A stretch of 60,207 nucleotides of DNA, counting the filler, from Hausera hauseri (taxonomy: Eukaryota): the NCBI GenBank assembly GCA_046269625.1. It is 12 parts of 12 records of this genome, joined end to end, with 100 filler letters (N's around TTAATTAATTAA, not from the genome) between each part and the next. Parts side by side here need not be neighbours in the genome. Positions count along the whole stretch, not along the records: positions 38,334 to 44,220 come from JBJURY010174305.1; 11 more parts are not named here. The stretch is one strand, 5' to 3'. Every line of letters starts with the position of its first letter. The first letter of the stretch is position 1. The notes under the pieces were generated by a model. That model made no database searches. It was not told the origin of the DNA and saw nothing but the letters and a program-made list of their open reading frames with translations. The position numbers were made by a program, and so were the translations under genes. This document shows positions 23,330 through 54,538 of the stretch, piece by piece.

Positions 23330-23590
23330 GCATGGCTTGAAGCTGCCTTATCCAAGAACGAACAACTCAGCGAAAACGCAGATTCTGGCTTTACCCAGAT
23401 ATTTTATCTCGGCCTTATAACCCAAACATCGAACCCTTGTCCACAAAAACAAGTCGTTTGTTGGTGGCCACTAAGACGCCACTTCCGTTGTTGCACGTCC
23501 TCTGAATGATTTGCTCGACAGCTCATCTTCCCAAAGAATCTTTGGCAGTTCCTTGACCTCTTTGAGGGCAAGAAAGCGGCTTGCATGGGT
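23330..23590 (-). pseudogene. Decayed cassette encoding a bacterial PH-domain (bPH_3-like) protein
   Basis: Across a frameshift: KEVKELPKILWEDE/VEQIIQRTCNNGSGVLVATNKRLVFVDKG. Confidence 0.6.
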
Positions 23591-23653
23591 TGGTTCTCTT
23601 TTTTCGTGCTTTGGTTTTTTCCCTGGCCAGATGAAGACTGAGAGTGTGAAATC

Positions 23654-23793
23654 GCCTAACGTCGAGCCTCAGCCGCTGTCAACATTTGTTAAACCGAGTA
23701 CTTGCAGGTTGTGCTGCTCACTCATCTCAAAACTACCAGGATCCTTTGGAATTACGAGATTCCGTCCCGAGGCTCAGTACTCAATAGTTATTG
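23654..23793 (-). other. attC site (left boundary ambiguous: 23793 or 23714)
   Basis: R' GTTAGGC at 23654-23660, a GAGCCTC/GAGGCTC inverted pair, and two candidate R'' sites. Confidence 0.6.
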
Positions 23794-25323: not shown

Positions 25324-25359
25324 GGTTTTCTCCTCCCATCGGTAACATTCTGTGCTCAC

Positions 25360-25422
25360 GCACAACTTTCCCCTACACTCATCGGGGCGAAAGCCCTGAT
25401 GTCTTCTGGTATTAAGTTATAT
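25360..25422 (-). other. attC site (63 bp)
   Basis: ATATAAC...CATCAGGGC TTTC GCCCCGATG...GTTGTGC. Confidence 0.75.
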
Positions 25423-25857
25423 ATTGGTTTTTTTTAGCTCAACCCGAGGAATCCAAACAGACCTCCAGCGTACTATCTTTTCACTGGCGCTTAATTCCTG
25501 AGAAGAAACAGCTACTTCTTTGCCTAGAAGCGACAAGTCTTCTAAGCACTTCGAGTTTACGGCACCAATCAGTTCAACGCCATTCTCATAGAGAACAGCC
25601 ACCAGCACACCGCAATTACTACAAAGAACAAAATCTGCGCTATTAGATCCCTGCCTGTATCTCTGAAGCATTGACGGGTTACTTACATCAATAGCCAGGC
25701 GTCCATTTGGATCAGAAACGTAAGCGGCTCCATGTTTTCGGCAGAATGTACAGTCACACGCTCTAGGATGAAAGTCTTTATGGGCGATCTCTGTTTCAAA
25801 TGTGACTTGAAGGTTTTCGCAGTGGCAGCTTCCAGTCAGCACGTTTATCTTTGCCAT
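25417..25857 (-). CDS. GFA / CENP-V family zinc protein (aldehyde-activating)
   Basis: GSCHC, RACDCTFCRKHG, FVLCSNCGV, AVN..CL motifs. Confidence 0.88.
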   Translation of the reverse strand: MAKINVLTGSCHCENLQVTFETEIAHKDFHPRACDCTFCRKHGAAYVSDPNGRLAIDVSNPSMLQRYRQGSNSADFVLCSNCGVLVAVLYENGVELIGAVNSKCLEDLSLLGKEVAVSSQELSASEKIVRWRSVWIPRVELKKTNI

Positions 25858-25870
25858 AACGTCTCCCTCC

Positions 25871-25965
25871 CGGTAACGTTTGAGTTAAGGGGCGGCACAA
25901 GGGGTGATAATAGCTGAAGGTCAACACCTCTTGTAATCCTGTTCCGCTTGAGCGAAGGGTTGTGC
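25871..25965 (-). other. attC site (95 bp)
   Basis: GCACAAC CCTTCGCTCAAG...CCCCTTAACTCAAAC GTTACCG. Confidence 0.8.
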
Positions 25966-25968
25966 CAT

Positions 25969-26499
25969 TTACTCATTGGGAATAATGGCAACTAAATCGG
26001 TAACGCCAACATCAATGCCTGATTGGAGCAGCAGGGTACTGACTTGACCACGATGATGGGTTTGATGGTTGAATAAATGCATGATTAAACTGTAAAAATT
26101 TTTGCTTGAAACCACACCCTTTATGCTTTTGTAGCTCAATACAGCGTCCAGATCTGGCTCTGTGAGAGTAGCCGCCCATTCGGAGATAGTACTATCAAGA
26201 GTTTTGCGATATTGATATAAGGACTCTATGTCTGAAAATAATTGCTGATCGAGTGATTTTGGGTTTTCGACTTCCAACTGCTTTAACGCCATGAAGTTTG
26301 CAGGATGATTGGCAAATCGTTTAAGCCAAATTGTGTCACCAACAGCAATGTGGTTTAACGTACCCAGTATTGAGCCAAAAAATGATTTTTTATCCGCTGC
26401 CAGCTCTGGTGCCGGTAACTGTCGTGCAGCAGTGTAGATGTTTTCATTCATCCATTGGTTGTATGAAGCCATAAGGCAAATGTGATTAATTCGACGCAC
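25969..26499 (-). CDS. DinB/YfiT-family protein
   Basis: YNQWMN, FFGSILGTLNHI..GD.IWL.RF, HLFNHQTHHRGQ. Confidence 0.92.
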   Translation of the reverse strand: MRRINHICLMASYNQWMNENIYTAARQLPAPELAADKKSFFGSILGTLNHIAVGDTIWLKRFANHPANFMALKQLEVENPKSLDQQLFSDIESLYQYRKTLDSTISEWAATLTEPDLDAVLSYKSIKGVVSSKNFYSLIMHLFNHQTHHRGQVSTLLLQSGIDVGVTDLVAIIPNE

Positions 26500-26511
26500 T
26501 GTTTTTCTAGG

Positions 26512-26578
26512 GCATAACGTTTGGGGTAACCGGCCTACGCGGTTTTTCGCGCAGATCCGATTGACTGCCGGGTTGGGC
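26512..26578 (-). other. attC site (67 bp)
   Basis: GCCCAAC CCGGCAGTCAA...GGTTACCCCAAAC GTTATGC. Confidence 0.85.
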
Positions 26579-26600
26579 GGAAAGTGGAACCAACGAGTTT

Positions 26601-27044
26601 TTAATCAGGTTTGACGACACGACCAACTATGAAAACGGAGACCAGACCAACGACCGTTGTACTGCCAATAACACCAGCAACAGCAGGAGAACCCATGGCC
26701 AGTGCCAACATTGAGGCACCAATAGCAGCAAGGCCGATTATGAAACCAAAGAATTGGCCTCGCTTTACTTCGGCCTCCATTGCGTGCAGGGCAGCAAATT
26801 CGATTTCTTGTTGGTGCTTCGCATCTGACTCAGCCATTATCAAGATGCGTTCAGCGGCACCTTTGACAAGACGCTCATATCCATCAAGTACTGAAGGGGG
26901 TGGCATGGGGCCAGCAAATGTAGATTGCTGGAACTGTGCAACAGACTTGCTATTGTCATTTGCGCCGGGAGCAGTAACAGAGCCATTGGCGGTGTTAACG
27001 GCGTTCTTAGGCTGTTTTGGTTTTTGTAATGGAGGTCGAGCCAT
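26601..27044 (-). CDS. DUF2335-like membrane protein (2 C-terminal TM helices)
   Basis: FAGPMPPPSVLDGYERLVKGAAERILIMAE...H...RGQ motif followed by two hydrophobic helices. Confidence 0.85.
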   Translation of the reverse strand: MARPPLQKPKQPKNAVNTANGSVTAPGANDNSKSVAQFQQSTFAGPMPPPSVLDGYERLVKGAAERILIMAESDAKHQQEIEFAALHAMEAEVKRGQFFGFIIGLAAIGASMLALAMGSPAVAGVIGSTTVVGLVSVFIVGRVVKPD

Positions 27045-27216
27045 TGTCAACGAACGATCCGCAAGCGCGGCTAACAGACTCGCCAACGTGGGTGAAATGA
27101 CTGGCCATGCGCTCAGTGCCGCTACGACGCGGTGCTAATTGACGCAGATTGCGCGCAGGAGCCAAGTCCATCACGCTTCCGGCACCACGAAGAAAATTTT
27201 TGGTTCTCGTATTCAT
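27007..27216 (-). CDS. Small hypothetical protein overlapping the DUF2335 gene
   Basis: 69 aa starting MNTRTKNFLRGAGSVMDLAP. The longer listed ORF runs into the upstream attC. Confidence 0.65.
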   Translation of the reverse strand: MNTRTKNFLRGAGSVMDLAPARNLRQLAPRRSGTERMASHFTHVGESVSRACGSFVDNGSTSITKTKTA

Positions 27217-27222
27217 GGGTGA

Positions 27223-27251
27223 ATGGTAGCCGTAAGCGGCTTTGCAATCAA
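27223..27251 (-). promoter_or_regulatory. Cassette-internal sigma70-like promoter, probably giving a leaderless mRNA
   Basis: TTGATT-17 nt-TACCAT, ending 6 nt before ATG 27216. No SD sequence is present. Confidence 0.55.
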
Positions 27252-27291
27252 GTTGTTGGCAAACGTATTTATAGCACGCGCTATCTTTGAT

Positions 27292-27369
27292 ACCCAATGA
27301 GGAGTTAAGGGGCGGGCACAAGGGGTAATAATAGCTGAAGGTCAAAACCTCTTGAGCGCTATGTTATGC
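27292..27369 (-). other. attC site (78 bp; R' degenerate ATTGGGT), related to the 25871-25965 site
   Basis: GCATAAC ATAGCGCTCAAG AGGTTTTGACCTTCAGCTATTATTACCCCTTGTGCCCGCCCCTTAACTC. Confidence 0.7.
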
Positions 27370-27373
27370 GTGA

Positions 27374-27586
27374 TTACTTGCAGCAAGCACCTTGCTGAAT
27401 TGGTGGGCATGGAACTGACCCATAAGAACAGAAAACGCAACAATCATCAGACTTTGGTTTAAGCAAAGTACCTCACCCTGCGCACTCATAAAACCACTGG
27501 CACGCATCAGTTGGCATGGTTTCTGTTTCTTTGCATCCGCAAGAAGGGCAAGTAATTGTTGACTGCAGGATTATTTGTTCGCACAT
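27374..27586 (-). CDS. GDCCVxC-type Cys-rich metal-binding protein with in-frame UGA at a Cys position (selenoprotein or nonsense mutant); absent from the ORF track
   Basis: MCEQIILQSTITCPSCGCKETETMPTDACQWFYECAG*GTLLKPKSDDCCVFCSYGSVPCPPIQQGACCK. TGA at 27473-27475; overlaps the merC stop. Confidence 0.85.
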
Positions 27587-27996
27587 GATGGATTTCCAGT
27601 TGTTTCTGGTACTTTGCAGGTTTTTGTTGGAGGAGAAATGAAGTCATAGATTGAAACGGCAAACATTACCGTCAAAGCAAAATAAAACATATAGGTGCTC
27701 CAGTCATTTGCCCAAAACAAATACAGTGTGGCAAGCACCATGGTAGGGCCGGAAATGCCAAGCAGCCCGCGAATATGCTTTTTATGTGATGCCCACATTA
27801 TGAGCGCAGAAAAAAGGGCAATGCCTGCAAACACTGGCAGCAATGTATTGATAAAAACGCCCTCAAATTGAGCGAGAAATCCAAGCCCAAGCGTTGCTCC
27901 AAGAGAACCAAGAATAGGGAAACACGCTGGACAGCTCATTGCTGAAACTATGGCACCGAGCGAACCGAATTTTTCAAAAAAGGCGGGGATTCCCAT
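27571..27996 (-). CDS. merC: Mercury transport protein MerC
   Basis: GSLGAIVSAMSCPACFP..G..LGLGFL.QFEG.FI..LLP.FA...GP...VSIYDFISP..C matches MerC. Confidence 0.9.
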   Translation of the reverse strand: MGIPAFFEKFGSLGAIVSAMSCPACFPILGSLGATLGLGFLAQFEGVFINTLLPVFAGIALFSALIMWASHKKHIRGLLGISGPTMVLATLYLFWANDWSTYMFYFALTVMFAVSIYDFISPPTKTCKVPETTGNPSCANK

Positions 27997-28011
27997 GTGA
28001 GGGCTCCTGAC

Positions 28012-28127
28012 GTATAACAGGATGCGAAATAAACGACACCAGCACGGGTATGGAGGCAGAGCTGCTGCCGATGTGCCGCAAGCGGTCGTAACCGCGTAGC
28101 GGCTTCGGCTTGAATAAATTGTTAGGT
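28012..28127 (-). other. attC site (116 bp), apparently hybrid
   Basis: ACCTAAC AATTTATTCAAGCCGAAGCCGC...GTTATAC; the two halves complement poorly. Confidence 0.65.
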
Positions 28128-28532
28128 ACCGGCCGTGTTTGCATCAGGCCTTTTTGCCGACATCCGCTCGTAGAGCAAGCCCCCGACCCAACACTGCGGA
28201 ATGGCCAACACAACCAGAGCAATGGGATACCACATTGGCGCAAGACCTTTGTTCCAAGTCACTGCCACGCCAACAAGCCCCAGTGCCGTACCAACGTAGC
28301 CCAGTGCCATGGAATGTTTCATAGGATTGCGGGGTGCAAGCTTGGCGGTGAGCCATGCGCCGGCGATACTGATAATGACTCGATAGATAGTTGCAATAAC
28401 GGCAAGGGTGTTGTCCATGGGCTCACCCATGGGTGGATAGACCTTTGCCATATGCAAAGCGATGTCCACCAAGGTCGTGACGACAATGATGAACACAACA
28501 CCAATAACGACAGCCAAGATGGATTTCTTCAC
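28122..28532 (-). CDS. Hypothetical 4-TM membrane protein (first cassette)
   Basis: Four hydrophobic segments, RBS GGAG before GTG, and the stop lies within the attC R'' site. Confidence 0.8.
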   Translation of the reverse strand: MKKSILAVVIGVVFIIVVTTLVDIALHMAKVYPPMGEPMDNTLAVIATIYRVIISIAGAWLTAKLAPRNPMKHSMALGYVGTALGLVGVAVTWNKGLAPMWYPIALVVLAIPQCWVGGLLYERMSAKRPDANTAGT

Positions 28533-28550
28533 GACTATCTCCCATTAGGT

Positions 28551-28600
28551 GCCTAGCGCTCAGTATACACCTGCACAGGTGCATACTTCGATAAAGCGCT
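28551..28600 (-). other. Candidate attI region
   Basis: GCTAGGC (GTTRRRY variant) at 28551-28557, between the first cassette and the intI start. Confidence 0.4.
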
Positions 28601-28655
28601 GGCATAAAACTGGAAAATCAATCATAACCATTTGTTTTTCCGTGAAGGAAAAATT

Positions 28656-29292
28656 ATGAAACCAAATCTGGCAGCAGTATACACCACCCAGAATTCTCCA
28701 AAACTGCTTGACCAAATGCGCGACAAACTCAGGATAAAACATTACAGCCCCCGAATAGAAAAGCAATACCTCCAGTAGGCAAGACATTACATTCTATTCA
28801 CGGCAAGCGTCATCCACGTGATATGGGGGAGCAAGAGGTTGGCCATTCCTGACGCATCTTGCTGTGGAAGGCAATATAGCGTCGCAAACTGTTGGATCAA
28901 GACAGTCGGCAAGGAGTCAACAGCGTCTGGTTGTTCTATGTGCTGGGACGCAAATATCCGGAAGCTGCCCGGGGATGGGGTTGGCAATATGTTTTTCCGG
29001 CACACGGGCTATCACGTGTGCACGGTGAGTGGCGTGTTCCGGCGGCACCATCTGGATGAAAAAGGATTGCAGCGCGCCATGAAAAAGCGGTACGGATTTT
29101 CAGCATAGTCAAGCCGGACACTCCGCACACCTTGCGGCATTCTTTTGCTACGCATCTGCTGCAAGGCGGCTATGATATACGTACTGTGCAGGAGTTTCTG
29201 GGGCATAAGGATGTACAAACCACCATGGTCTACACGCATGTGTGCTGAACGAGGGTGGTCGGGGTGTTACCAGACCTCTGGATGTTGTTTAA
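28656..29292 (+). pseudogene. intI: Integron integrase, frameshifted with a large internal deletion
   Basis: PKLLDQMRDKLRIKHYS; QYVFPA; [15 protein letters not shown]; [41 protein letters not shown]. Only about 640 bp. Confidence 0.92.
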
Positions 29293-32023
29293 ATAGTTTG
29301 CCGGTTGCTCGTGATTAAGGACACGCTGATTTATTCGGAGATCGGCCGGTCATGATGATTGATGATATGCGAGAATCAGCACATGGATGGNNNNNNNNNN
29401 NNNNNNNNNNNNNNNNNNNNNNNNNNNNNNNNNNTTAATTAATTAANNNNNNNNNNNNNNNNNNNNNNNNNNNNNNNNNNNNNNNNNNNNATAAATGAAA
29501 TGATTAAAACATATCAAAATACAAAAAATGGTGTTAATGATTATTAATGGATACGAACGTCAGGTAATCACATGTTCCCGTTTATCGATGATCGGCTGTG
29601 TCACGTATCGATTTTTATAAAATATTTGCACATGTCGTACTTGAATTTGCGTCATCAGAAACATGGGCGATGATTTGAATCTCACATTAACATTGTGAGT
29701 AAGATATCGTGAATCGAATTGCAATGACTGTTGACGAATGTTTTCAGTGAGTTGATATCATTTCGTATAATGTTCAGTAATGTGTTCGTATTTATTGATA
29801 TTCGGGTGCAAGATATGTGTGGTAAACATAATTTCAAAAAACTCTTCGATGTTTGGGGTTCGCTTTATGTCGATGCCGCTATTAAGATTGACTGAATAAA
29901 ACTCATGGTTCGGAACAGTCACCCTTAAAGAAACAATTTTATGGGGCGACGAATTACATAGTCGGACTACCTGGGCTTTTAGTCCGTCGTATACTATCCG
30001 ATGGATGTTTCGTGTTATGCAAACTTAGATGGTTACAACTCAACTGTGAGACAGATTTAAATAACTTTAAACACGTTGTTTGGAGAATATGGGAATTTGA
30101 TTTGATTTTACTATTATCTGCGTTGTCTTTTACCAAGAATTTTCATAAATGAATACACAATTCCTCCTTTCTGTCTAATCTCCGTAATGACGATATTCGT
30201 ATTCTATCAAACGTTAATACGTGCTGATCATTTTCTACTACATATCGTAAAGTTGAACTACTAAGTCATTGGAGAATATCGGGTAATTTATCCAATTTCT
30301 CCAAAATGTATATAAGAAATTGAATTTGTCCATTACTGAGAATCGCATCTGACTTAAGAAATTCTGTTAGCGTTGGTCACATTTGTTGGCGTTTCGCTTA
30401 AAATAACTTGCGTCCGATCTTTGGAAATGAAATAATGATTGATATTTCCAGGCGGAAGATCGGGCCCGACGCGGCGGCAACGGACGCCCGGCCGTGTCAA
30501 ACCAAGTAAGCCAAAGGACACCGGTCGCTGTGGGCACCACAGTGATCTTTACACCGTGTGGTTGCATACTCTTTTCTAAATTCTTAACTTTCACTTTATC
30601 TTCAGTTTCCTGGATCGGTTTTTCCTTTTTTGAAGTGTCCGGAAATATCAATTTCACATTTTTTGAAGGACCGAATCTATTCAGTCATTCTGGGTATCAG
30701 TAACAGACGGATCAGAAATATGCCTGTGTCGGATTATTTTGAGGGTTTCGGACGTGTTGAAAGTCTTTCGTTGGAATAAACTTTTTCTGTTCATGTTGAT
30801 CATGTTCACAATAAGACTAATCGGTTGAGCCATCGAAAGAAAGTTCGCTTTGTATCATTTTTGAAAAATATAAGAAACGAATTAAAATTTAAATTTGAGT
30901 TTTTAATTTATTTGCTTTTGTAACTATGTAGGTTTACTACACGTATAGTAAATAGTAGACATTATCGTAATGATTCATGTGGTTCAGTACATAAACAAAG
31001 CTAAGATTATGCAGTATGAGCTTCTAAATATTGTCATTTCGCACTTCTTCTATTCCCTCCATACGTGCAGCAGAATTTTGAAATTTCATAAAGTTTTCGT
31101 TTCTTTTTTTCAAGTAATATTTTGATGTAACATCTAGAATCCTACATTGCATAACTTTTAGCTTTGTTTGAAAAAACTCATTATTAATAATCATAAAATT
31201 TAGTACTTGAAGAACCTGTGAAACTTAAAACTCTGATTAGCAGTAAGGTACTGTTCATTGTTAGTTGCTTCAAATGTGTTTAATCACCTTCATTTAGATC
31301 CTTTGACTATAGATTTATTATGTGTCGGCACGTAAGGATCCAAGGGTAGTATTACACGGGATTAATAATTGTAAAAGATTTCAATAATCAGTTTTTCGTT
31401 TCTTTTAATAGATTCATTGTATATAAAATCAACAATGATCTAAAAACACTTCAATCAAATGATTCAAGTTGATTAGAAAATGCGAGCGATTGGATGTTGA
31501 ATTTATACCATGTAATTTACTACGTGAGAATTATTAAATGTTGCACGAAAGACAACTGTGTGTATGCGTGTGTGTGTGTCATAAAGTACTTTAATAAATA
31601 CTCGTAGAGCGATTTATAGCTTTTCATATCTTAAATTATATATTTTTGATATCTGTAATTTTTATAGTAAATTTAAAATACTAATTAATGCGATTATTTT
31701 TTTTAATTTGGACATTTTGTCATTGTAACCGAATATATTCCATTAGAAAGTAAGAAAAAAAACATTTTACTGTGTATAATTGCATAAGAACTAAAATTAA
31801 GGTCTCTAACTTTATTGCAAACAAACCATATTCCAAATAAGCAAGGAGCAGTCAAATTATATCATATTCCATAAAAACAAAGACAGTAGATCAAAGTCAT
31901 TCTTATGAGAAACTCTAAACAGGTTCATGTACGCGCAATTGGATTTAGTCTGACGCATTAATCTTTCGTTTCTTTTCGATTTCAATTTTGCCATGAATCA
32001 ATAAATACACCTTTGATACATCT

Positions 32024-32496: not shown

Positions 32497-33763
32497 CATG
32501 GTGTATTCAGTAAGTATCGGACCTGAGGCAGAAAGCAATTTCAGAAACACGTAATTTTTATTACACAAAGAGACAAACATATAGCTATCACTTCTCAACA
32601 TAAGTCCCATTTCTCTACACACACTTCTGCCAACGAGCCACCAACTCGTCAAACGCTCGTTCGAAGAAGTCCGGAGGGCAGTCATCAAAGAAAGTCTCCA
32701 CAGCGATCCTCAAGTCGTCGTTGGACCGAAAGTTTTTCTCTGGCAAATGCTTCTTAAGATGTCTAAAGAGCCAAAAGTCGGTCGATGCCAAATCTGGACT
32801 GTATGACGAGTGGTCCACAAACGTCAGTCCTGCAGCTTCAATTGTAACCCGAGAAACGCCTGCCGTATGCACTGGCGCATTGTCATGCAGGAACCATAGT
32901 GGCATGTGCCTTTGCTTTCTTCTTTCATGCCTGGTGGTTGCAACGAGCTGACGCCGTTATCCACAGTCGTGTGGATGATGCCCTTTTGGTCCCAGAACAC
33001 GGAAAGCATCATCGTCTGTCTGTGGCTTGTCCCTGTCGGCACCTTCAAAGATGGCTTCTCTCCAGGCAATTTCAACTCCGCCGACTCACTTTAGGTTTCA
33101 GGGAAGTATATGCTAAGTGAGGTTTCATCCGCCGTAATTAAATTTGCCGGTAAAGTCTCCACATGTTCATAAAGAGCCAAGTTGTTTTGACAGCTTTCCA
33201 TTCGGGTTTGCATCATCTCACCAGTCCAGAAGCGTGGAACAAATCTGGAACATACCTTTTCTGATGCCCAATGCATTCAATTTTGCAAAGACCATACGGA
33301 GGCTAATGTTCAGTCGGGTTGCCAGCAATCTCGTGGTGATTCGACGCTCTTCTTGTATGATTTTCGGCAATTTTTCATCCACGAAGCTAAAAATTTCTCT
33401 CGGACGGCCTTCTCTTTCTTCATCAAATACTGAGGTGCGTCCACCTTTAAACTCTCTCACACAATATTTCACAGTTGTTAACGATGGAGCATCGTCCAAA
33501 TATATCGACTGCAGAAGCTCAAAGTTTTCGCTGCATGTTTTCTTCTGTAATACGAAAAACTTGATTACACTGCGGTATTCGACCTCTGAAATCATGACTA
33601 AGACGAAAATTTAAATTTCAATGAGATATTTTTGCTACAGACTGATAAAGTAAAACAAAACCAATATTGTAAACCTAGACAGATATAGGTGTTCTTGAAA
33701 TAAATGTCAGGTCCTTAGCCACTTTTTTCCTTGTTAGGTCGGGTACTTATTGTACGCATCATG
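32497..33763 (-). mobile_element. Full-length (1267 bp) mariner (DD34D) transposon with frameshifted transposase (about 32615-33595), imperfect TIRs of about 29 bp and TA TSD
   Basis: YRSVIKFF, DEEREGRP, RFVPR, ITADET, FLHDNAPVH, YSPDLAS.DFWLF. Ends TA-CATGGTGTATTCAGTAAGTATCGGACCT and AGGTCGGGTACTTATTGTACGCATCATG-TA. Confidence 0.93.
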
Positions 33764-38333: not shown

Positions 38334-40500
38334 ACCGGACCAGCTATTTTTACAAGAATGATGAATAAGATGCTAATGGGATTAGACCATGCTTTTGCGT
38401 ATTTAGATGACGTAATGATAGCATCGAAAACGGAAGAGGAACACACTAATAAGGATATTGGATTGAAATTAAACCCCAAGAAATGTAAATGAGCTCAAAA
38501 CGCAGTATCCTACCTTGGCCATATAGTTGGATAAGGAGGATCAAAACCAGATAAGTCGTTATTGAATAAAATATCAGACTTCAGGGAGCTACAAAGTCAA
38601 AAAGAGTTAGGTGGATATTACGCCACTTATGTACCGGACAACTCGAGAATAAATGCACCCTTATATAGACTACTAAAGAAGAGAATTAAGTGGAAATGGA
38701 TAGACGTCGAACAGAAAGCGTTCGACGAAATTAAAAGGATATTAACGAGTGAACCAGTTTTACGATACCTCGACTTTAATTTACTCTTCATAATCAAGAC
38801 AGACGCCAGTAAGAAAGGTATTGGTTACGAATTAGCACAGAAAAGAGAAGATGAAGAATTAGAACACCCAATTGTTTACGGAGGACGTTCCTTGAAGAAA
38901 GCCGAAAAAAATTACTCCGTCACCGAACTAGAAACACTAGCCGTAAAAGAAGCGCTTCAAGATTTTAACGTTTATGTGTACGGGCAGAAAATCATAATCG
39001 TTACTGATTAGAAAGCCGTTACTACCTTAAATGGACGAGTGAATAACCCAATATGCAAACTCAACAGGTGGATTGAGGAGATCTCGAGGTACAATATTGA
39101 ACTTCAGTACAAGCCGGGAAATAAGCATGTAGATGCCGACGCACTATCGAGGTTAAAATCCAAAACAAGTGCAATCACTGTAATAAAGAAGAGTCAGATC
39201 GAAGAGATAATAGATCGCCAACGTGCTCTAACGATAGATAAAGCATTTAAAATTTCAACCGGACAAAGAAAGGATAAAATCATCCAGCAGATTATAGAAT
39301 TCGTCAAGAAGGACGTAATACCAAAAGAACGCCAGTTAAAGAATTATTTACACAGACATGGACACCAGTATTACATTATGAATAACGAGGATCCTGAAAA
39401 CCTCCTATATTACGAGCGAAAAGGAAGGAAATTGATAATTATTCCAAAAAGCTTACGGATTGAGGTTTTGACGTCGGAACATGATTCGTATTTAACAGGA
39501 CACATGTACTGGAAGAAAACATTAGAAAGAATATTAAATAAATACTTTTGGCCCAGTATCTATATCGATGTAAAGAATTGGGTGGATGTCTGTGAAGTAT
39601 GTGCGACTAAACAAAAGAAGACAAAGAATTACAGGGCTGAATTAAAGCCGATTAATGTGCCTGATAGACCTATGCAAGCCACGTCAATGGATATCATAGG
39701 ACCGCTCCCTACAACCCATAAAAACAATAAATATATCTTAACTTGTATTGATCGACTAACTCATTTTGTCGAGCTGATTGCGCTGATTGACCAAAAAGCA
39801 GAAACACTGGCTGAAGCTGTAGTTAGGAAGGTCATCTGTTGATATGGACCGCCCGATCAGATACTGACAGATCGAGGAAGAAATTTCACGAATGAATTTT
39901 TCCAAAAAAATTACCATATCATCACCAGTGCAATGGGATAGTCGAATGGATGAATGCTACCGTCATACGCATACTATCTACAGTAGTAGCGAAAGAACAG
40001 AAAGATTGGAACGAATTCCTAGAAGGCACTCAATTCTCTATCAGTACTACGCCACATCCGGCGACAGGATTTACACCATTCTTCATGATGTACGGGCATG
40101 AGGCAGTACTGCCCACAGATCTAGGAATGATACCATATACAGGTAGCACAGAGGATCTAGAACACAACTTCGCAGAGGTACTACGGACACGTCTACAAAA
40201 GTGCTGGGAAATCGCCAAAGAAATATCCGAGGGATATCAAGAACAATGTAAGAAGCAATATGATAAAAAAGCGAAACTGCACGATTTAGAGTGTGGAAAT
40301 TGGGTCTATGTACATTATCCAGTAGCCAAGAAAGGTACATCATTAAAACTGACATGTACAGTTAGAGGGCCGTACGAAATTACTAGGACCACACCAACCA
40401 AGGTGTACATTAACAAAAACGGAAAATAAGAAGTCGTGTCAGTACAAAGAGTTGTTAAAACAGAAATACGGCCTAACAGACGTTATAATTTACGTCGACA
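38334..40500 (+). pseudogene. Ty3/gypsy pol (RT C-terminus, RNase H, integrase), decayed; same family as 49693-52000
   Basis: AYLDDVMI; TDASKKGIG; YSVTELETLA; HDSYLTGH...CEVC; MDIIGP; TDRG; RGPYEI; RRYNLR. Confidence 0.95.
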
Positions 40501-40529
40501 CGAAATAAAAACTTCTTCAATAATCGCCA

Positions 40530-41590
40530 GACCAATATCGTACATTCAAATAGTTTTAACAGTATCGCTAATTGCTTCTTATCTTCCGAGAACACAGGCC
40601 CAATGGTGGGATGACGAATCTACACTAGGAGACATATACGGAATACGGAAAAGCGGAATAAGGACGAAAAATAACACAGAAAAAAAGAATTAACCCCTGA
40701 GGAGATCCAAAGACAAGAAGACATTAAATTATTACAAACAATAGCAATTCATTATTTCTCGCCAAATTCCGTATGTGTTGGATTCAAGGCTTGGAGGCTA
40801 CACCACAATTTCGGAAGATTTCAAATTGTCTTACATGATATAACAACGAAAGAAGCGAAAAATTGTGACTTTGAACCTGGAGATTATACGCAGTGTTGCG
40901 ACATAGATATTGGACGCATTTATAATCTTACCTATCGCCTGTACCTACCGGAATCCTTAGAAATATATATTGAAATAAAACCGCAACTTCAATTAGTTGT
41001 TCCTGCATGGAACAGACATCATGGAATAAAGCTCAATGAAATACAACCGTCCACTGACTTAAGTTTAAGACTATTGGCTGACACCTAAAAGAGAAGTGTG
41101 GCGAATCCCTGTCAAGTTTTCGGTACATCGTTACAAAATCGTGTTTTATGTGGAAGAGAAACTAAACTGCGATATACACATAAGCTGCAGAACTACGTAT
41201 AACGATCAAACCATGATGATACCTAAAAGCACTTACCAAACAGAATGCGATCTGCTCCAACCAGACTCCGATTACTTAGTACAAATATATGCAAGGAATA
41301 AGCAAACTCACACAACTGCATTACGCACACTAAACTAAATTCATATAGCATCGCACATCTATGAAAATATAGACAATGAACTTACAATTCCGGCCACTGT
41401 ACAAACACCATTTGGATTAACTACATTACCAGTTATAGCAATCGTTGTATTGTCAGTATTTGTTCTCGGTGCTCTAGTTGCGGTTTCTAGGTTGATTACC
41501 AAAAAGTGTCTGTCTAGGCGCCCCAAAATTACAGAATGGGAGTTAATAGAATTGGGAAAGCCTGTCGACCCTTATGATGAAATAACCTGA
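40530..41590 (+). pseudogene. Type I membrane protein in frame after integrase: signal peptide, two FN3-like domains, TM, short tail ending YDEIT
   Basis: Signal IQIVLTVSLIASYLPRTQA; FSPNSVCVGF..GRIYNLTY; STDLSLRL/WLTP..YKIVFY..LQPDSDYLVQIYARN; TM LPVIAIVVLSVFVLGALVAVSRLI. Two frameshifts and one stop. Confidence 0.65.
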
Positions 41591-41710
41591 CAATTACAGA
41601 TCGGGTTATTCCGTCATCAAACCAAGGGCTGGTTCTATTCTAACATCGCAATTTGTTTAAAGATCAATCTTTACATTTTAGTTTTCAAATTAGTAAGTAA
41701 ACCAACCGAC

Positions 41711-44214
41711 ATGGAGGAAAGCCGACGTAGCATCGACGAATTCTTACAAAGATATGCAACAGTGTTAATTCCCAAATCAAAATCTATATTCAGGCAGATA
41801 AATAATGAATTTCAAGAACGGACCTTCATCGAATATAAAACGACAAATGAAATTCCGAATAACCTCAAAGGAACCAATGAAGAAAATAGAACTGTCCGCT
41901 TGTATGCAATGAGACAGAATGAAGATGCGAAAGCCTATGCATTACTTCCATAGGCTCAATATAGTACAAACCGTCGTCAGAGCATATATGTACACTTAGC
42001 TGATGGAGAAATTTATTACCTGTTAAAGGATCAAAATTGAGACTCCGCAAAAGGGCGACAGAATCGATTTAGCACATTTTTAATCAATAGTAGAGACTTC
42101 CAGTTTTATAACTGGGAACTGGAATTTCGCGTAGCTGCTTTGCCTGTAAAGCTAATGTTTGAAGTGACAAAAGAGGAGACACAATATTCAACATTACCGC
42201 CTTTGGAATTCAGACAGAACCCCACTGAAGAAGATCAGGACGAACACTCATATTCTCTCAGATTGGTATCGGACGCACGGAACGTCCGAATCATTGCGGT
42301 GAACTATGGAGAAGGGGATCATGAAAATTATATTCCAATCGAGGTATCCGTACGAGAAGCGAATGGTATCGAAATCTATTCGAAAATAATCAGTCCAAGA
42401 AAAGGGCGAGAGAGATTTATACAGAGGTAACGGGGGTCCGAAAAGAACAAATAACTCAAGGAAAGAATATAGAAGTAATCCGAGAGGAACTAAGACATTG
42501 TTTGTACGGATGTATCCTAGTCGGATATTAGCTGGAAATGATTATGGAGAAATTAAAACTCCCAACCAAATACATCTCAGGAATAAGAGAAATAGAAACG
42601 CACCCTAAAATAATGGAGCAAATGGAACGAAACCTAACAGCAAGAAAAGAGTATCTACCACCGACCGTTGAGGGTCGATTTAAGTTGATGATTGAAGTAA
42701 TGAGCGGAACGCATGTTAGAATAAGTCGACTATTAGCAGCCAGCCAGAGATCTCAATACTAACGAGACATAAGTGCAGGGCTGAAATGGGATCACGAATG
42801 GATTCCAGACAATCCGAATCAAAATTTAAGAAGTTCCACTAATCCAGAAAATTTAAGCAACAGGCATAGACGATATTTTCGTCCCTATTCTTCCCCTAGA
42901 AACGTCGAAAACATAGAAAGATCCAATTACCGAATAACTATGCAAAAACGTAATTCAAGAAAAACTAATGAAGAACCAAAGATGGACAAGAATAGACCTA
43001 GTACAAGTTATAGTTCTGAGACAAGATCCATGAAATCACAGGAAGTATTCAAAATACCGAAGATTGCAAGAAAATATCAGGAAAAAGATAAAATCCAAAG
43101 ACAGTAAAACGAAAACACCGTAGTCGTTGGTAAAAGAAAAATATCCCTTTACGACTAGTTATTTAAGAAAAAGAACAAGACTACGAAAACAGACAAGCAA
43201 ACGAACCTCGATCACGGACAAGGAAACCAAACTGTCGGAGCCATCATAGAACATTTGGAAAAGGAAACTCCACCGAAATCCGCAATAACGCAAAACATTG
43301 GGAGAAATAAAAACTTTATGAAGGAGCCGAAACAGTCAATAACCAAAATAAATATATTAAAGAAAGAGAGCTCTCCTAACAACATATCCCCCAATGCGAC
43401 GGAGAATTACCCTAAAATGTTAGTGAACATCGAGTATTACAGCCATCAAAGGATTAAGGAAGCCATGTTCTTTGTCAAAATGGTACCAGCATGAGAAGTC
43501 TATGAGAATACTTACGTTTGGGAAAATCCGAAGATTGGAAAATATATAGCACCCATATTCCAGTCAAAAAGAAATGGTATACTAATAGTCCCAGTAGGCA
43601 AATCCGTAAAGACGTATCTTAAGAAACAATACCAAAAATACCAATCAGTTGGTGAGGTTCCTGACTTAGATCGAGATACCATTAGTGATTGGACGTTAGT
43701 GCCAGTTGGTTGTGACCCCAAGAAAAGCTCTATAAACACCAAACAGAAAAGAATATACGAGTACTTATATTACGATAGTTATGGACTAGTTTTCGAACCC
43801 ATTGAACTCACGATACGAGTTGATCTAGATGACGAAAACTGGGAGATGGAAGAAAATGAGTGTCCGGTATGTGAAGCGAACCTCAAACAAGAATATGTGA
43901 TATTAAATAACCCCGATTGCAGACACAAATATTGTCGGGACTACTTAGAAAAGTGGACGCTAAACAGTGGAAAGACTACATGCCCGGTGTGCAGAGCCAA
44001 GGCAACAGATCTGAAATATTTCTCAAATGGCAGCTATACTCGAGTAGTACGAATTAAACCGCATCATTGTTACGAATTGGAAAGAAACCCCAGAGAAAAT
44101 TCAACGAGAATAGAACCAGAAACGAGTCTGAGACGACGAATGGACTTACTAAGACAAAATTGTTATGGCGTCACCTCTCCTGACGCAATAGGCACATCCG
44201 AGGATGCCGCTTAG
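41711..44214 (+). pseudogene. Long decayed accessory ORF (about 830 codons) ending in a C3HC4 RING finger (43861-43992)
   Basis: Collinear ORF pieces at 41711, 42140, 42538, 43255, 43699. CPVC...CRHKYCRDYLEKW...CPVCR (one Cys to Tyr). Confidence 0.7.
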
Positions 44215-44220
44215 GGAGGA
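44213..44220 (+). other. Candidate polypurine tract before a 3' LTR (contig ends here)
   Basis: AGGGAGGA overlapping the RING ORF stop codon. Confidence 0.4.
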
Positions 44221-46480: not shown

Positions 46481-49400
46481 ATGGAGGTACCAATAACATT
46501 TTCACGAAACATTACGGGCGTTACCGCCAATTTCCGCCGTAACAAAGACCCACCTCCTAGCTCGTCAACTGTCGGCGAATTAATCCAAGTTGTTCTCGAC
46601 GACATCCTTATTCATAATAATACTTTTTACCGCAGAAACCGTCGAGCAGTTGCCGGACCTGGTTATGGAGGTTCGGCCGCCCAGAGATCGCCGCATCGGC
46701 GCAGTGGTGCCACGCGTCGGGCTGTCCGAGCACCGGGCGTGCTTGCGTCGTGCACCGCACTGCCCATCCGTCGCTCATACCCCCTATCTTTCTCTTCATT
46801 TTTTAACCAACAACAAAAACATATACACACACATGGAAGGACACACTACACGCAACACACCTACCACCACCTTGCTAACCTTCTAGGCACTTCTAGCTTT
46901 TTCTTATCCTACAACGGTCTCATCATCCACAACTTTTATTATCTTCTCCTTTTCAGACAGACTTCCTTTCTTATTCAAATCAATTTCAAAATCCTTGGCG
47001 GCGTGAACTCTTCATCTTCGATTGACATCACGGAAAAGCCAAAATCTATTCCGATATTACGCTGCGCCGGTATAGTAACACCTCCTTGCCTCCCTTTCGT
47101 CCACCACTGTACCCAATTCTTCATCGACAGTCAAACTCAAGCCAAACCTGGCTTCAATTTCATCAGCTCTGGCTGCAATCTGCAAACATCACCGAATCTC
47201 TTCCAAAGGCCCATAGTCTCTTCTACTATCTACCAAATTCGATTAAAACTCGAATACCCAAACTTTTACAACTCTTCAAACATCCTGATTCTTACAAGCA
47301 GCTATACAACGCTGTTCTTATGCTTACAAAATCTTCTTTGGATTCTATTATTCAATGCTACTTCAATGAGAACACCCTAGGCAATCAAAAGCCCTCCGAA
47401 TTCTTACAAATAGCTCTAAATAACTTGAAAGCACTCGGAATAACACATAAACACAACTCAAATCTTTGAAGACGTTATTTTCTCTACGCTTTACCCTTAC
47501 AAATTAGGGGTCCGTTAACCGTGGTTGAAGAATCATTAGATCTTAACAAACTAACCGAGTTAGCCGATAAATCATACGAATTATTGCAAATGCACACTAC
47601 CCCACTTATCTCTACTACCATCACATCAAACGATATACAACAAAACGCATTTCAACAACAAATAACTCAATTAGAGGCTGACAACAAGGCGCTGCTAGAA
47701 ACCATTAACAGTATAAACAATAAGTTGAGCCAACTGACTTTCTCCAGAGTGAATTTTCCGAGTGCCACACATTTCGATAGACCCCCACTGCACAACAGAC
47801 GATCACCATTGCCCGAACGATCGTCTATTTGTTATTATCACCATAATTTTGGCAACAATGCACACAAATGTTGCATTGGGTGAAAATTGTTTGCACGTAA
47901 ATTTAAGTCCGGCAACAACATCTGCATCTACCATTCTAAATTCAACACTAAGATTATATAATGTTTACCAGGATGCAATTTCAACTCACATGAGAATAGG
48001 CAACCCTCAACTAACAAACAAAATCAAACAGGTAAAAAACTAATAACGCCGCTAGAGTCATCGGCCACCTCTAGCAAAGGCTCCACTTTACAAAATTACA
48101 GCTGAAATACAACATTTGCAGCTTTTAAGTTGGAGGCAACTGTCGTTACTCCAATAAAACATAACATTAATTTCCTCATAGACACTGAAGCAGATGTCTC
48201 TCTGCTTCCTCCATAATATGAGGTACATAACAAAACACATTTACACAAAAAATTATTCGCTGCAGCAGGGGCAGAACTAAACATATTCGGCACTACTAAT
48301 ATCACTTTTACATTACCACATAACAAAAGCACATACAATTGGACATTTACAGTTGCCAATGTCCAAACACCTATATTGGGATCAGATTTCCTGTCCCATT
48401 ACCAACTACTGATGGATTGCAGAGGCTGTTGCTTGATTAACTCAAACCAATTTGAACAACCTAATTCTGTGAATATCATTTCGGTGATCGAGCAGACGAT
48501 CACTGGTCGTAAACCTGCTCTTAAAACATCATATATTAATTTAAAGTATTATTATAATCATCCCTTATTTAGAGACTACTATAGTACAGTTGACAAATAT
48601 GATAATGCCAACTCTTTGACGCCTTTTGCTAACGAAACCGCTCGCAACACCATTTTTAATTCCACAATATTGCACCAAATTCCACCCAGTCTTGATAACA
48701 CAACTTTTTCCCTAACTGACGCTAAGCAAATTGAAACATCAGCATCACCGTCAACCATTTTATCATCACTTCCACTGGAGTTGCAATCCTATGTATCTTC
48801 TTCTTTCATTTCTTTGTTGCAGAAAGACAAAGCTTTTAAACCAGCCACGCACACTTTTCATCATATTGTCACAGAACACGAGAGACCCATACGACAAAAA
48901 GTACGACCATTATCCCCATGTCGCAGACACGCAGTCGAAGCCGAATTTTCAGAACCACAACGCTTAGGCATAATCAGCTGATCAAAATCTCCATGGGCTT
49001 CGCCATTACATGTTGTCCCAAAAAAGGACGGATCTTTTTGCCCATGCGGTGACTACAGGCAATTGAATCAGATCACAAGCATGGACGCCTACCCTTTGCC
49101 TCTAATTAATGCCATCCTATATAGACTTCACGGCTCCACCATTTTCTCAAACATCGATCTCCATAAGGCATACCACCAAATTTCTATAGCACCAGCAGAC
49201 ATTCCAAAAACGGCAGTAACAACTCCTTTCGGACTTTTTGAATATTTGTACATGTTATTTGGCTTACGCAGTGCATTCCAAACCTTTCAGAGGCATATAG
49301 ACAACATCCTCGCAGACTTAGACTTCGCATATCCTTACATCGACGACATTTTAATTGACTTCTCATCCTCTGAACAGCATACTGAGCACCTACGCATTGT

Positions 49401-49592
49401 TCTCAAACGACTCCGACAAAACAATCTCTAAATAAACTTCGCAAAATGCTCCTTCTTTAAACAAAAAATTAATTTCCTTTGACACATAATTATTCCAACC
49501 GGACACGCTCCACAGCGAGACCGCATCACTCAACTGAAAAACATTCAATTACCACGCACAAATTCAGAAATGCGTTCCTTCCTCGGTACTTT
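46481..49592 (+). mobile_element. Decayed Ty3/gypsy element: upstream ORF with UBL-GG (about 46786-47002), gag, protease, RT
   Basis: Gag LGNQKPSEFL, LTELADK, ICYYHHNFGNNAHKC; PR FLIDTEADVSLLP, ILGSDFL; RT SPWASPLHVVPKKDG, CGDYR, KTAVTTPFGLFEY, YIDD. Confidence 0.92.
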
Positions 49593-49692: not shown

Positions 49693-52600
49693 ACATCATA
49701 AAAATGGCGTAAATCCTTTTGCTGGATGCGGTGTGGTATTAATTGCAAATTGAGTTCCTTGTAAAAATTCGTCCCAATCCTTTTGGTTTTTAGCTACTAC
49801 GGTTTATAGTATGCTTATGACAGTTGCATTCATTCCTTCAACGATTCCATTACACCGAGGATGATATGAAGTTGTGGTTAATCTTTCGATTTCAAATATT
49901 TTGCTTATCTTCTCTAATAGTTCAGTGGTAAAATTTTTTCCTCGATCTGTCAATATTTGGTCTGGCGGTCCATATCGGCAAATGATTCTTCTAACTACAG
50001 CTTCGGCCAAGGTTTCTGCCTTATGAATAATTAACGCTATTAATTCGACAAAATGAGTTAGTCGATCAATACAAATCAATATATATTTATAGTTCTTGTG
50101 TGTCGTAGGTAGCGGTCTTACGTTATCCATTGACATGGCCTGCATGGGTCTGTCCGGTACGTCGATTGATTTCAGTTCTGCCATGTACTTTTTTGTCTTC
50201 TTTTGTTTGGTCGCACATACTTCACAAGCATTCACCCAATTCTTTACATCAATATAGATACTCGGCCAAAAGTACTTATTCAATATTCTTTCCAGCGTCT
50301 TTTTCCATGACATGTGTCCTGCTAAATATGAATCATGTTCTGCCATTAAAACTTCGGTTCGTAAACCCTTATGAATGACTATCAGTTTTCTTCCTTTCCG
50401 TTCGTAATATAAGATATCTTTATTGCTTTTGTCATATAAGACTCAGTATTTATGTCCGTGCCTGTGTAAATGTTTCTTTATTTGCCGTCCTTTTGGTACG
50501 ATGTCTTTTTTAACAAATTGTATAATTTTCTAAATAACTTTATCCTTCCTTTGTTCTGTTGAAATTGTAATTGCTTTATCCAACGTTAGAGCACGTTGGC
50601 GCTCTTTTATTTCTTCGAGTTGACTTTTCTTCATAACGGTAATTGCACTCGTTTTAGTTTTCAGTCTCGATAATACATCGGCATCTACATGTTTATTTAC
50701 TGGTTTATATTGGAATTCGATATTCTATCTACAGCTTTCTTCGATCCGTCTACTAAATCTGCATGTCGGGTTATTTGCTCGGCCTTTTAAAGTCGTAACG
50801 GCTTTGTGGTCAGTGATAATTATAATTTTCTGCCCTTACACATAAACGTTGAAGTGTCTAAGCGCTTTTTTTACGGCTAGAGTTTCTAAATCAATAACAG
50901 AATAATTTTTCTCGGCCTTCTTCAAGGAACGTCCTCCATAAGCATTGGGTGTTCTAATTCTTCATCTTCTCTTTTCTGCGCTAATTCATATTCAATACCT
51001 TCTTCACTGGCATCTGTTTTGATTATAAAGGGTATGTTGAAGTCTGAGTATCGTAGAACTGGTTCACTTGTTAATATTTTCTTCATTTCGTCGAAGGCTT
51101 TTTGTTTGACGTCCGTCTATTTCCATTTAATTCCCTTCTTGAGTAGTTAATACAAGGGTGCATTAATTTTCGAGTTGTCCGGCACGTAGGTGGCATAATA
51201 TCCACAAAGACCTAGCCAGTGTCTTAGCTCTTTCTGATATTGAGGTTCCATACAATCTGATATTTTGTTCAATAATGATTTGTCTGGTATTGTTCCTCCT
51301 TCTCCAACTATATGGCCAAGGTAAGATGCTGCGTTCTGGGCCCATTTACATTTCGTTGGGTTTAATTTCAGTCCGGCCTGTTCTAGGTGCATTAGCGTGT
51401 GTTCAGTATCCTTCAGATGTTCCTCTTCCGTTCTTGACGCTATCATCACGTCATCAAAATACGCAAAAGCATGATCTAGCCTCAGTAACATTTTATTCAT
51501 CATCGTCGTAAATATGGCCGGTCCGTTAGTAATGCCAAACGGCATGACGTTGAATTCATAAACACTATCGTGTGTTTTGAATTCTGTTTTATACCGATCT
51601 CCGTCCTCGATTTCTACTTGTCAATACTCGGATTGTAAGTCCAGAGTGGTAAACAACTTTGCTCCTGAGAGTCTGTCTAGAGCCTCTTTTACTGATGTCA
51701 GTGCAAAAGAATCTTGATTATATTATTATTATCATAAGATTATTCAATGCTGTGTAGTCAATACAGAATCTATGTTTCGTAGTACCCTTCTTTCTAACTA
51801 TGAGGATTTGTGAGTGCCAAGGTCTATAACTGGGCTTAATTATATCGGCCTTAATCATTCGCTCGACTTCTTTTGTTATCTCGGGCCTTAGTGAATGTGG
51901 CGGAGGATACTATTTCGGTACCCTTTTATTCGAACCAGGTTTTTTGTCAAGCGGAATAGTCAACTTTAATGCCTTTGTCCTACCAATATCTTCGTCGTCT
52001 TTAGCAATAATCGACTTATAGCGGCATAATAACTCGTAGAATCGACAATAAGATTCGTGGAAAACTTAGTTTCAACATGCAGTGGGAATTCGGCATACTT
52101 GTAAGGCTTTTCTTCAATAGTTATAGACCACACCCTATACGTATCTCCTAAAGTTGTATAGACATGCAGCTTTACGGGGGTCGGTGAATTATTTGCTATT
52201 CTGATAGGTACACGACCGGAGTGTATTCTTGTCAGTATGTTACTAAGTATTATATTCGGATTTAATGTTTCTCTTGGTTCGAAATATACCGGTTGATTAT
52301 TATCTTGTTGAATTTGCGCGTAAATTATTATCTATGTTGTAGGTGGAATATTTTCATCTACTGGTATCCACACTTCCAAAAGGCGTTATAATTGCAGTCA
52401 GTATTTTACATGAAAATCCGGTCAAGGTAAATATTTCATACCCATTTATTACTGCTTGGATGACTGCCTTAACCATTTGTATTAGGAAATGTATTGCTAA
52501 GAATCCGGATGCAGCCTATCCAAAAATTAAAATCTTCCAAAAATTTTGTAGTATTTCTGTGGTTACCCGCTGGTAATGATTTACGCTAAACAGCGATTCC

Positions 52601-54010
52601 CATTTAGCTTGGTACCGAGTATCATCCGCTATGGAGGCCATGTCTCAATTTAATTCATGCGTCCGCTGTCGTGGAAAGGCAAGAAACTGTCTATAGGCTT
52701 CAATCTCTTTAGGCCTATATATGCCTTTTTGTGAGTTATCCTGGAACTTGTCGTCAGTAATTCCTTTTGCAAGATTCGTGCCAGTTAGCTTCCTTGGGGT
52801 CTCTGCAATGCCTCCATTAGGTAAACTGACCCAATTTGTTTTGCTACGTCTAAACATGAGCTCGCCTAAACCTGCCTTGCAATCCTTAATGATTGTTGGC
52901 TCAATCGCGTTATCTAACAGCACTCTAGTAAGTGGCATAGTTAACCGCGGAACATTTTGGTACATCACGGGGAGTTCCTGTATACATCGTTTCTCTTCGA
53001 CATTGATTGATACGTTCCGTTTTTCTCACTCATATGTCAATAAAACTTCACCGGTAACTCGAACAAAGATTCCTTCCCTCATGGGAATTATTCCAGCTTT
53101 TAGTTCCGGGTTAGCATAACTGAAGGATAATTTTGTCCTCATGATTTCCGTGTCCAACTTACAATCATTCGTTATCATTTCGTTGTACAGTTTGGCTATT
53201 CGTACTTGACCTTTGTAGTAAAAATAATCGTATCGATTTTTTAGATAATCCTCAATTTGAATATCTTGCGTTTTTAACTTGTAAATTCTTACATCTATTT
53301 CTGTTTCTGCGACGAAAAACGCTTTATAGTTAATAGCGAACATCACTACTTCACAACGAGAAATCATGTCTTTTTTATAAATTTTATTCCATGTTGGTCA
53401 GAGATTAATACAGTATGTGTGGAATGTTCTGATACGTCTTCGCGCATCCTTGAATTAGTATCAGATTTATCCACATATTGTTTTCCGATAGTTTCATTAA
53501 ATTTTAATTTTTTAATTTTGGTAAAATTACAGCTCCTTCGAGAGGGAGGTTCCCATATTATCACAGAACGTTTAAAAGCACAAGTTCCGTCTTGTAAGTG
53601 GCACTTTTGATTCTCGGTATATTGTTTGGTCACATTATGGAACATTACTCTCTGGGCTGGCATCTCCGATTCATAGAAATCCACGACCACTATGTTTGCT
53701 TGTAATCCTTTTTCAGTGTCATATTCTTCTCCGTTACAATGTCCGTTATGCTTGTCTAACCTTCCGACCACTACCTTGTATGCCCTAATTATCTTTCCTG
53801 GTTACATCTCCAATTCTATACTATCCCACTGTACTCTTCCAGTCTCTTTAGTCTGTTTACAATGATACTGTTCCAAATTCATTGGGATTGAAAGGGTTGT
53901 TGGTTTGATTATTGAGGAATGTCCATACATTAATTCACAGTGAAAAATGCTACGAAATCGTCTCAACATACATTGCATTCTATTAGTCCTTTTGTAAATG
54001 GTACGTGTAT
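49693..54010 (-). mobile_element. Second copy of the env-first gypsy family: glycoprotein (about 53980-52375), deletion junction, spacer, RT, RNase H, integrase
   Basis: ORFs 53364-53771, 53026-53367 and 52645-52968 are close paralogs of 5266-7560. RT FCIDY, MPFGITNGPAIF, YFDD. Integrase 49804-50346 is near-identical in protein to 39039-40429. Confidence 0.92.
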
Positions 54011-54011
54011 A

Positions 54012-54428
54012 ATCAAAACCTTGTTTTCGATATTCACGCTTTATTATAATAATTGTCTTTTTATAAACTACGTTGCCTTTCGGATTGAATACGTGCGGAT
54101 ACAGACACAAATTGATCAAATCACTTCCATGATATATCGTTGTTTTCGGCATGTCGACTTTCCTTTTCAAAATTTGACATTTGAGCGTGTTATAATTAAA
54201 CATTTCTAACAATTGATCAACAGAAACTTCTAATTGTTCAAAATTTTGCTTATCTTTAACCGCATTTTTACATTTGTCTTCAAGACCTTTGAAATCGTCA
54301 GGTTTTAACTGCTTGTCTTCTATATAAGGGTAGTAGTAAAAACCTTTGTCAACGGGAGGTTCGCAGCAAAGATGGCCGGAATATTGCAGCTTCATTGCCT
54401 TTCCTAAAATATGGACCAATGAATGCAA
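54012..54428 (-). pseudogene. TARS: Eukaryotic threonyl-tRNA synthetase fragment (editing domain plus start of catalytic domain), fused in frame to the env-like gene
   Basis: HS..HILG.AM...Y.G.LC..PP...GFYY...K.Q.FE.LEV....LLEMF.YN..KC.IL...DL..LC..PHV and PKG..Y......REYRK.GF. Confidence 0.88.
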
Positions 54429-54538
54429 AAAAATATAANNNNNNNNNNNNNNNNNNNNNNNNNNNNNNNNNNNNNNNNNNNNTTAATTAATTAANNNNNN
54501 NNNNNNNNNNNNNNNNNNNNNNNNNNNNNNNNNNNNNN

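Follow-up and report, generated by a model that had tools for sequence, protein, structure and literature searches.

An FN3-transmembrane protein gene in frame behind the integrase of a likely Burro-like retroelement from Hausera hauseri, with a candidate leaky stop before a RING frame

Organization of the locus

The window, that is, the whole stretch of 60,207 nucleotides from the Hausera hauseri assembly GCA_046269625.1 analysed here, is made up of 12 contigs joined by identical N44-12mer-N44 spacers (at 4461-4560 and 10 more sites). Since these contigs are unrelated, neighbourhood across the spacers carries no meaning. The gene under study, encoding an FN3 protein with a transmembrane (TM) helix, is located on the 5.9 kb contig at 38334-44220, whose 5' end falls inside an RT and whose 3' end lies 6 bases past a RING frame.

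On the plus strand, this contig opens with the RT tail and RNase H of a decayed gypsy pol (38334-39008; Pfam RT_RNaseH_2, E=4e-32), followed by an integrase comprising H2C2, core and C-terminal parts up to the motif RRYNLR (39012-40495; Integrase_H2C2 E=1e-17, rve E=4e-4). The Ty3/gypsy order RT, RNase H, integrase is therefore present, and the contig is the 3' half of a decayed gypsy element copy. Its integrase is broken by stops at 39840 and 40427 and by a frame change near 39895; in translation, the stop at 40427 falls within the integrase C-terminus. At the opposite end of the contig, 3' of the RING finger, summed contig depth reaches 19,000 (44047-44220), possibly nearing a 3' LTR.

Elsewhere in the window, the segment at 22339-29390 looks bacterial among animal contigs (GC 46-59%, compact genes), which points to a mixed sample; by eye, its ORFs include a D-Ala-D-Ala dipeptidase-like, a phosphoesterase-like and a mercury-transport-like one. 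The minus strand carries pieces of a RING and then a MATH/TRAF domain at 16373-17696, representing a TRAF-like gene or Burro-type accessory cargo, as well as a decayed AAA ATPase lacking introns at 20753-21691 (AAA domains are reported for Burro-like elements) and a decayed mariner-type transposase at 32615-33610 (DDE_3, HTH_48). Two decayed copies of a different gypsy family, with gag-protease-RT order and an RVT_1 match, lie at 47026-49431 (plus) and 54539-57816 (minus), while the ORFs at 10783-11597 and 59289-60045 are related to each other, carry short repeats rich in His and Cys, and have no Pfam match.

The FN3-TM protein and its homologues

A search of 1.84 billion proteins with the FN3-TM protein returned three matches, none of them a cellular receptor. 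Two (P0002 and P0003) are true homologues, and the third, P0004, which consists of PKD repeats, was discarded as a generic beta-repeat match. P0003 (479 aa) combines a signal peptide with three beta domains, a linker rich in Thr and a TM helix, and it ends in YDRIT; P0002 is a C-terminal piece ending in YGRIT. As the preliminary description had proposed, the H. hauseri copy encodes a TM helix (41432-41488, plus strand; hydropathy 2.95 over 19 residues), also found in both homologues, and a YxxI tail, which ends PYDEIT; the terminal Y-x-x-I-T motif occupies 41573-41587, and P0002 and P0003 end alike. At 27-64% identity, the homologues retain the layout of the FN3-TM protein, and the preservation of signal peptide, TM helix and YxxIT end among natural proteins that have diverged this far implies long selection.

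Two FN3-like repeats had also been described, and they differ in standing. The membrane-proximal domain (41087-41335, plus strand), which is followed by a stop at 41336, gives a Pfam fn3 match below the curated cut-off (E=0.0043), and its fold is supported by structure comparison. Folding a three-sequence alignment produced a model with pLDDT 88 and 7 strands; Foldseek gave at least 500 matches, 45 of them at E<=0.001, and the model matches FN3 structures. The best VIA match has Z 9.7 and rmsd 2.8 over 82 aligned residues, and the 50 VIA matches listed are all FN3 domains or FN3-containing proteins. As modelled, the membrane-proximal domain is a seven-strand beta sandwich of FN3 topology.

The first domain (about 40717-41004, plus strand) has the pattern C-x29-C-x9-CC and shares 27% identity with P0003 (pairwise E=7e-16), and no Pfam match was obtained for it. 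Its comparison with domains 1 and 2 of P0003 was equalled in score by 0 of 2000 shuffles in each case, and that with the confirmed FN3 domain was weak (30 of 2000). Matches for it in the ESM Atlas are unnamed and all below 0.8. For the low-confidence model of P0003 (pLDDT 46), most of the matches contain FN3, and none reaches E<=0.001. From this repeat homology, we infer that domain 1 is FN3-like. When alignment A3 was searched against the sequences of solved structures, a TM-level match alone emerged (E=1.2). Among viral matches, 0 reached E<=0.001, which leaves the FN3 domain with no close viral source. The likeness to cytokine receptors drawn earlier holds for the FN3-TM architecture and fails for the class I signatures: WSxWS, a Box1-like PxP and RGD are missing in all four sequences examined, and the absence of the first two indicates that the protein falls outside the class I cytokine receptors.

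Copies of the gene and their breaks

In run X1, 2028 of 15.5 million contigs fall on 40250-41900, and 1664 of these are below 95% identity; the run comes from a single study, possibly of the source sample of this genome. No further copies were found by locus scans of JGI metagenomes or viral contigs. A segment unique to this copy would have been a flanking host gene, but its presence across the X1 contigs and in diverged homologues is at odds with that origin, and by sequence the FN3-TM gene is family-wide cargo of the element. A functionless passenger, whether a captured fragment of a host receptor or a flanking host gene, is accordingly very improbable: FN3-TM receptors are common in animals and the copy at 38334-44220 is broken, but the segment is multi-copy and joined to integrase, introns are absent, the layout persists in the diverged homologues, and no cellular receptor is among the protein matches.

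The breaks that had been noted in this copy, near 40680, near 41070 and at the stop 41336, are all present in the sequence, but they are of different kinds. The first, a frame change within seven consecutive A (40680-40693, plus strand), is common to at least one other copy, since an 89%-identical X1 contig crosses this A run with 0 gaps over 40572-40933. An indel near 40680 occurs in 3 X1 contigs, amounting to about 22 of a covering depth of 98-108, a count possibly skewed by contigs that end close to the A run; most of the depth keeps the frame change. Many copies would consequently not make the FN3 protein, and this common frame change weighs against an essential FN3 role in every copy. A programmed -1 frameshift at 40680 was rejected: a slippery heptamer stands in phase, but no RNA structure lies downstream (z +2.29 and +1.27) and P0003 is unshifted.

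The second break, at 41069-41087 (plus strand), exists but fits the loss of a middle domain better than a plain frameshift, as about 129 residues of P0003, covering its middle domain and Thr-rich linker, are missing there; no indel near 41070 is listed in run X1. At the stops 40427 and 41336, most of the covering X1 depth differs (85 and 3 contigs, respectively), and both stops look private to the copy at 38334-44220.

The junction of integrase and signal peptide

Read in translation, the frame does run on past RRYNLR (40478-40495), stop-free, into a signal-peptide-like segment, in agreement with the preliminary description. This putative internal signal peptide (40523-40600, plus strand) lies in the integrase frame, has a top 12-residue hydropathy of 2.25 and ends TQA/QW, with a signal-peptidase site predicted between A and Q by the -3/-1 rule. 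In the copy at 38334-44220, no in-frame ATG occurs between the integrase end and the signal peptide. At least three X1 contigs among those listed span both integrase and signal peptide. Among the best 40 of 572 X1 differences, no indel of at least 2% share falls between 40250 and 40677, and at the 4 high-share positions within 40430-40600 no single change yields a stop or an ATG. Taken together with the translation, these observations make it somewhat more likely than not that the integrase-FN3 frame fusion is genuine in the FN3-carrying subfamily.

Over 47 aa at the signal peptide, identity to the P0003 N-terminus is 64%. The signal peptide is thus the best-kept part in comparison with P0003 (the domains show 27-39%), which is odd for a signal peptide, and a second constraint may exist. 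P0003 carries its own Met immediately ahead of this segment, and separate expression of the FN3 gene may therefore occur in at least one relative. Word-seeded protein searches, a weak form of evidence, found no fused pol-FN3 protein (0 of 400 candidates in one; 1 of 146 in another, unrelated), and in a third, equally weak, P0003 was the sole relative among 5218.

The own Met of P0003 lends itself to an alternative in which the cargo consists of independent accessory genes: the FN3-TM protein, translated from its own start or from a spliced RNA, would serve as a decoy receptor or in superinfection exclusion, its stop would be a true stop, and the RING protein would begin at an ATG of its own. 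An AG at 40529 with 10 of 15 pyrimidines upstream fits this arrangement. So do rotifer LTR elements, in which extra ORFs follow pol; as here, their ORF3 holds non-env cargo after pol, such as TM proteins and DEDDy exonucleases (PMC5408684, in the available text of which FN3, RING and readthrough have 0 occurrences). Set against this is the present copy, which offers no in-frame ATG ahead of the signal peptide. With the features of the stop described below also weighed, such independent genes are considered unlikely.

A candidate leaky stop and the frame behind it

The FN3-TM frame closes at a TGA (41588-41590) followed by CAA TTA CAG, which together form a type I (TMV) readthrough context (41588-41599, plus strand) and hence a candidate leaky stop. 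In TMV, the leaky stop precedes CAA UUA CAG AUU, and the type I motif is defined in PMC13517186; according to the available text of that source, type I readthrough in TMV resembles the present case in combining a stop, CAA UUA CAG and a downstream gene in frame. Here the stop is followed by CAA TTA CAG ATC, so that 11 of the 12 bases after it are those of TMV. Of the 6280 stop triplets in the window, 18 have the motif CARYYA directly 3'; in the non-bacterial contigs, 3 of 5619, the stop at 41588 among them, have both the motif and 40 open codons; because the motif was spotted after the fact, these rates overstate the case somewhat. The joint rarity of motif and open frame also speaks against independent genes separated by a true stop.

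In X1, summed depth rises to 24,000-28,000 within 41538-41649, compared with 32-47 in neighbouring bins, and 41557-41612 is free of differences among the best 40 of 572. One linker indel, 3 bases long, is listed. This indirect sign that the motif may be kept across copies comes from one run, possibly the source sample. In addition, 19 X1 contigs bear different sequence 5' of 41573, and a hairpin spans the stop (41576-41618, with CAAUUAC in the loop; z -2.17, 5 of 200 shuffles, the best of 5 folded windows). Either the hairpin or a separate repeat may be the cause of the high depth. Downstream of the candidate leaky stop, no RNA structure was detected (z -0.32). Type I readthrough works without downstream structure.

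No instance of CARYYA in a retrotransposon, or of readthrough in a flatworm element, was found in the open-access literature. The stop of the LTR element SIRE1 uses CARYYA. It is an in-frame pol/env stop in the 3' part of that element and is suppressed, which provides a precedent (available text of PMC2194720).

Past the stop, the FN3 frame continues as a decayed coding frame (41591-42430, plus strand) with 2 stops in 279 codons versus 16 and 20 in the other frames, and 40 open codons separate the stop from the first in-frame ATG at 41711; that ATG could start a RING gene alone, as the independent-gene alternative would have it. After one frame change, a further decayed coding frame extends over 42424-44214 (plus strand; 5 stops in 596 codons versus 54 and 38 in the other frames) and contains a RING finger at about 43855-43995, for which the zf-RING_2 match exceeds the cut-off (E=8e-8). 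The stretch at 42250-42600, for which no profile or structure match was obtained, may be DEDDh exonuclease-like. A moderate hydrophobic stretch (1.67) 3' of the stop could complicate topology. Overall, the candidate leaky stop appears to join the FN3 gene to the downstream RING frame, and, judging from its sequence context, it is likely that the stop at 41588-41590 is read through.

A fusogen on sister contigs and a likely Burro-type layout

A fusogen had been placed upstream on the same stretch as the FN3 gene. This placement is not upheld, as the window consists of joined contigs and no single one carries both genes; the fusogen is present on sister contigs alone. One of these (49693-54438, minus strand) holds pieces of a fusion glycoprotein (PF24664 matches) upstream of RT-RNase H-integrase and ends within the integrase; its pol shares 76% nucleotide identity with that of 38334-44220 over 1839 columns. 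The other (4561-8864, minus strand) encodes, as read from PF24664 and translation, a weak ubiquitin-like domain, an internal signal peptide, the fusion glycoprotein, a TM helix and an aspartic protease, and the two sister contigs have 72-84% repeats in common. The order is thus fusogen and then protease, followed by RT on 49693-54438. On 4561-8864, the fusogen, like the FN3 protein, starts with an internal in-frame signal peptide, a parallel that favours the integrase-FN3 fusion. It belongs to a class III-type family. Ubiquitin matches on the sister contigs are weak (E=0.08 and E=0.22), and profile searches detected neither BCL2-like nor dUTPase-like domains. From the related pol, we infer that the fusogen and the FN3 gene belong to the same element.

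Some flatworm genomes are dominated by Burro-like elements. In Burro, env stands in frame between gag and pol (PMC6431247). According to the available text of the same source, the giant planarian gypsy-like LTR elements Burro and GYPSM1 share with the present contigs a mononegavirus-related fusogen in this position, the order protease-RT-RNase H-integrase, ubiquitination-related cargo and an upstream ubiquitin-like domain (weak here). Typical of the Burro set are ubiquitin-like and BCL2-like domains before env, a dUTPase-like domain after the protease, and a single ORF of about 5000 aa within an element of more than 30 kb in a planarian host; the contigs available here are short and show neither LTRs nor gag. 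The available Burro text describes no FN3-TM domain ('fibronectin' 0 times), post-integrase fused cargo or leaky stop (PMC6431247). GAG-ENV-POL errantiviruses of Platyhelminthes, Nematoda and Bryozoa likewise place an HSV/gB-type env before pol, as do the sister contigs, and the available text on them describes no second surface protein after pol ('fibronectin' 0 times; PMC13524379). FN3 cargo in a gypsy element was not found in open-access text; figures, supplements or Repbase may show such cargo. The FN3-carrying multi-copy gypsy retroelement is likely Burro-like, and the gene order makes a flatworm the likely host.

With a fusogen in the same element, the FN3-TM protein could be its attachment partner in a two-component entry system, both being made from one polyprotein and sorted to budding sites. 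Herpesvirus gB requires partners, and the dependence of a gB-type fusogen on a partner would suit this reading; YxxI tails such as that of the FN3-TM protein are typical of viral surface proteins. In addition, a single polyprotein would produce the two in a 1:1 ratio, and one sister contig has the fusogen upstream of the related pol. Nevertheless, fusogen and FN3 gene never share a window contig, the break near 40680 is common to many copies, and the available text of PMC13524379 attributes to gB-type errantiviruses no genes beyond gag, pol and env. Two-component entry would also leave the readthrough context and the RING frame unexplained, and its probability is put low, at about one chance in four.

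A proposed model and its implications

The preferred reading is of a polyprotein in which two membrane cassettes alternate with cytosolic parts. A cytosolic gag region would be followed by a signal peptide, a luminal fusogen and a TM helix, and then by cytosolic protease-RT-RNase H-integrase; after the integrase, a second signal peptide would lead into luminal FN3 domains, a TM helix and the short YxxI tail. Host signal peptidase would free the FN3-TM part as a surface protein. Polyprotein translation of this kind, with one signal-peptide/TM cassette before the protease and another after the integrase so that the enzymes are kept cytosolic, is somewhat better than an even prospect.

At the YxxIT stop, most ribosomes would end and a few percent would continue, adding the putative exonuclease-like region and the RING. 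The short form would then be a binder of a host surface protein or ligand that cycles via YxxI, and the long form a membrane-anchored RING ligase that ubiquitinates the bound partner for removal. Given polyprotein translation or readthrough, this division of labour between a binding, cycling short form and a ubiquitinating long form is put forward tentatively, at somewhat under even chances. RNF43/ZNRF3 and the herpesviral K3/K5 combine an ectodomain or TM with a cytoplasmic RING and remove surface proteins. They serve as a working analogy for the readthrough product, with no homology claimed; in contrast to such membrane-anchored RING ligases, about 750 decayed codons lie between tail and RING here.

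The whole chain, in which a polyprotein-derived FN3 surface protein and its readthrough RING form act as a receptor-like host modulator and not as a second envelope, is a possible reading that falls a little short of an even chance. Its extension to a family of giant enveloped retroelements is doubtful; these would make from one polyprotein with internal signal peptides both a fusogen, encoded ahead of pol, and an FN3 receptor, encoded behind it, and would turn that receptor into a membrane-anchored RING ligase by way of a TMV-type leaky stop, a kind of signal hitherto reported from plant viruses alone.

A second, receptor-shaped surface protein would provide a handle on the tropism of Burro-like elements or on their immune interference. 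If an animal retroelement does use a type I leaky stop, this would lie outside the distribution given in a 2026 review. Furthermore, if the readthrough form exists, the element would have built a receptor-ligase of the sort with which large DNA viruses counter surface proteins of the host.
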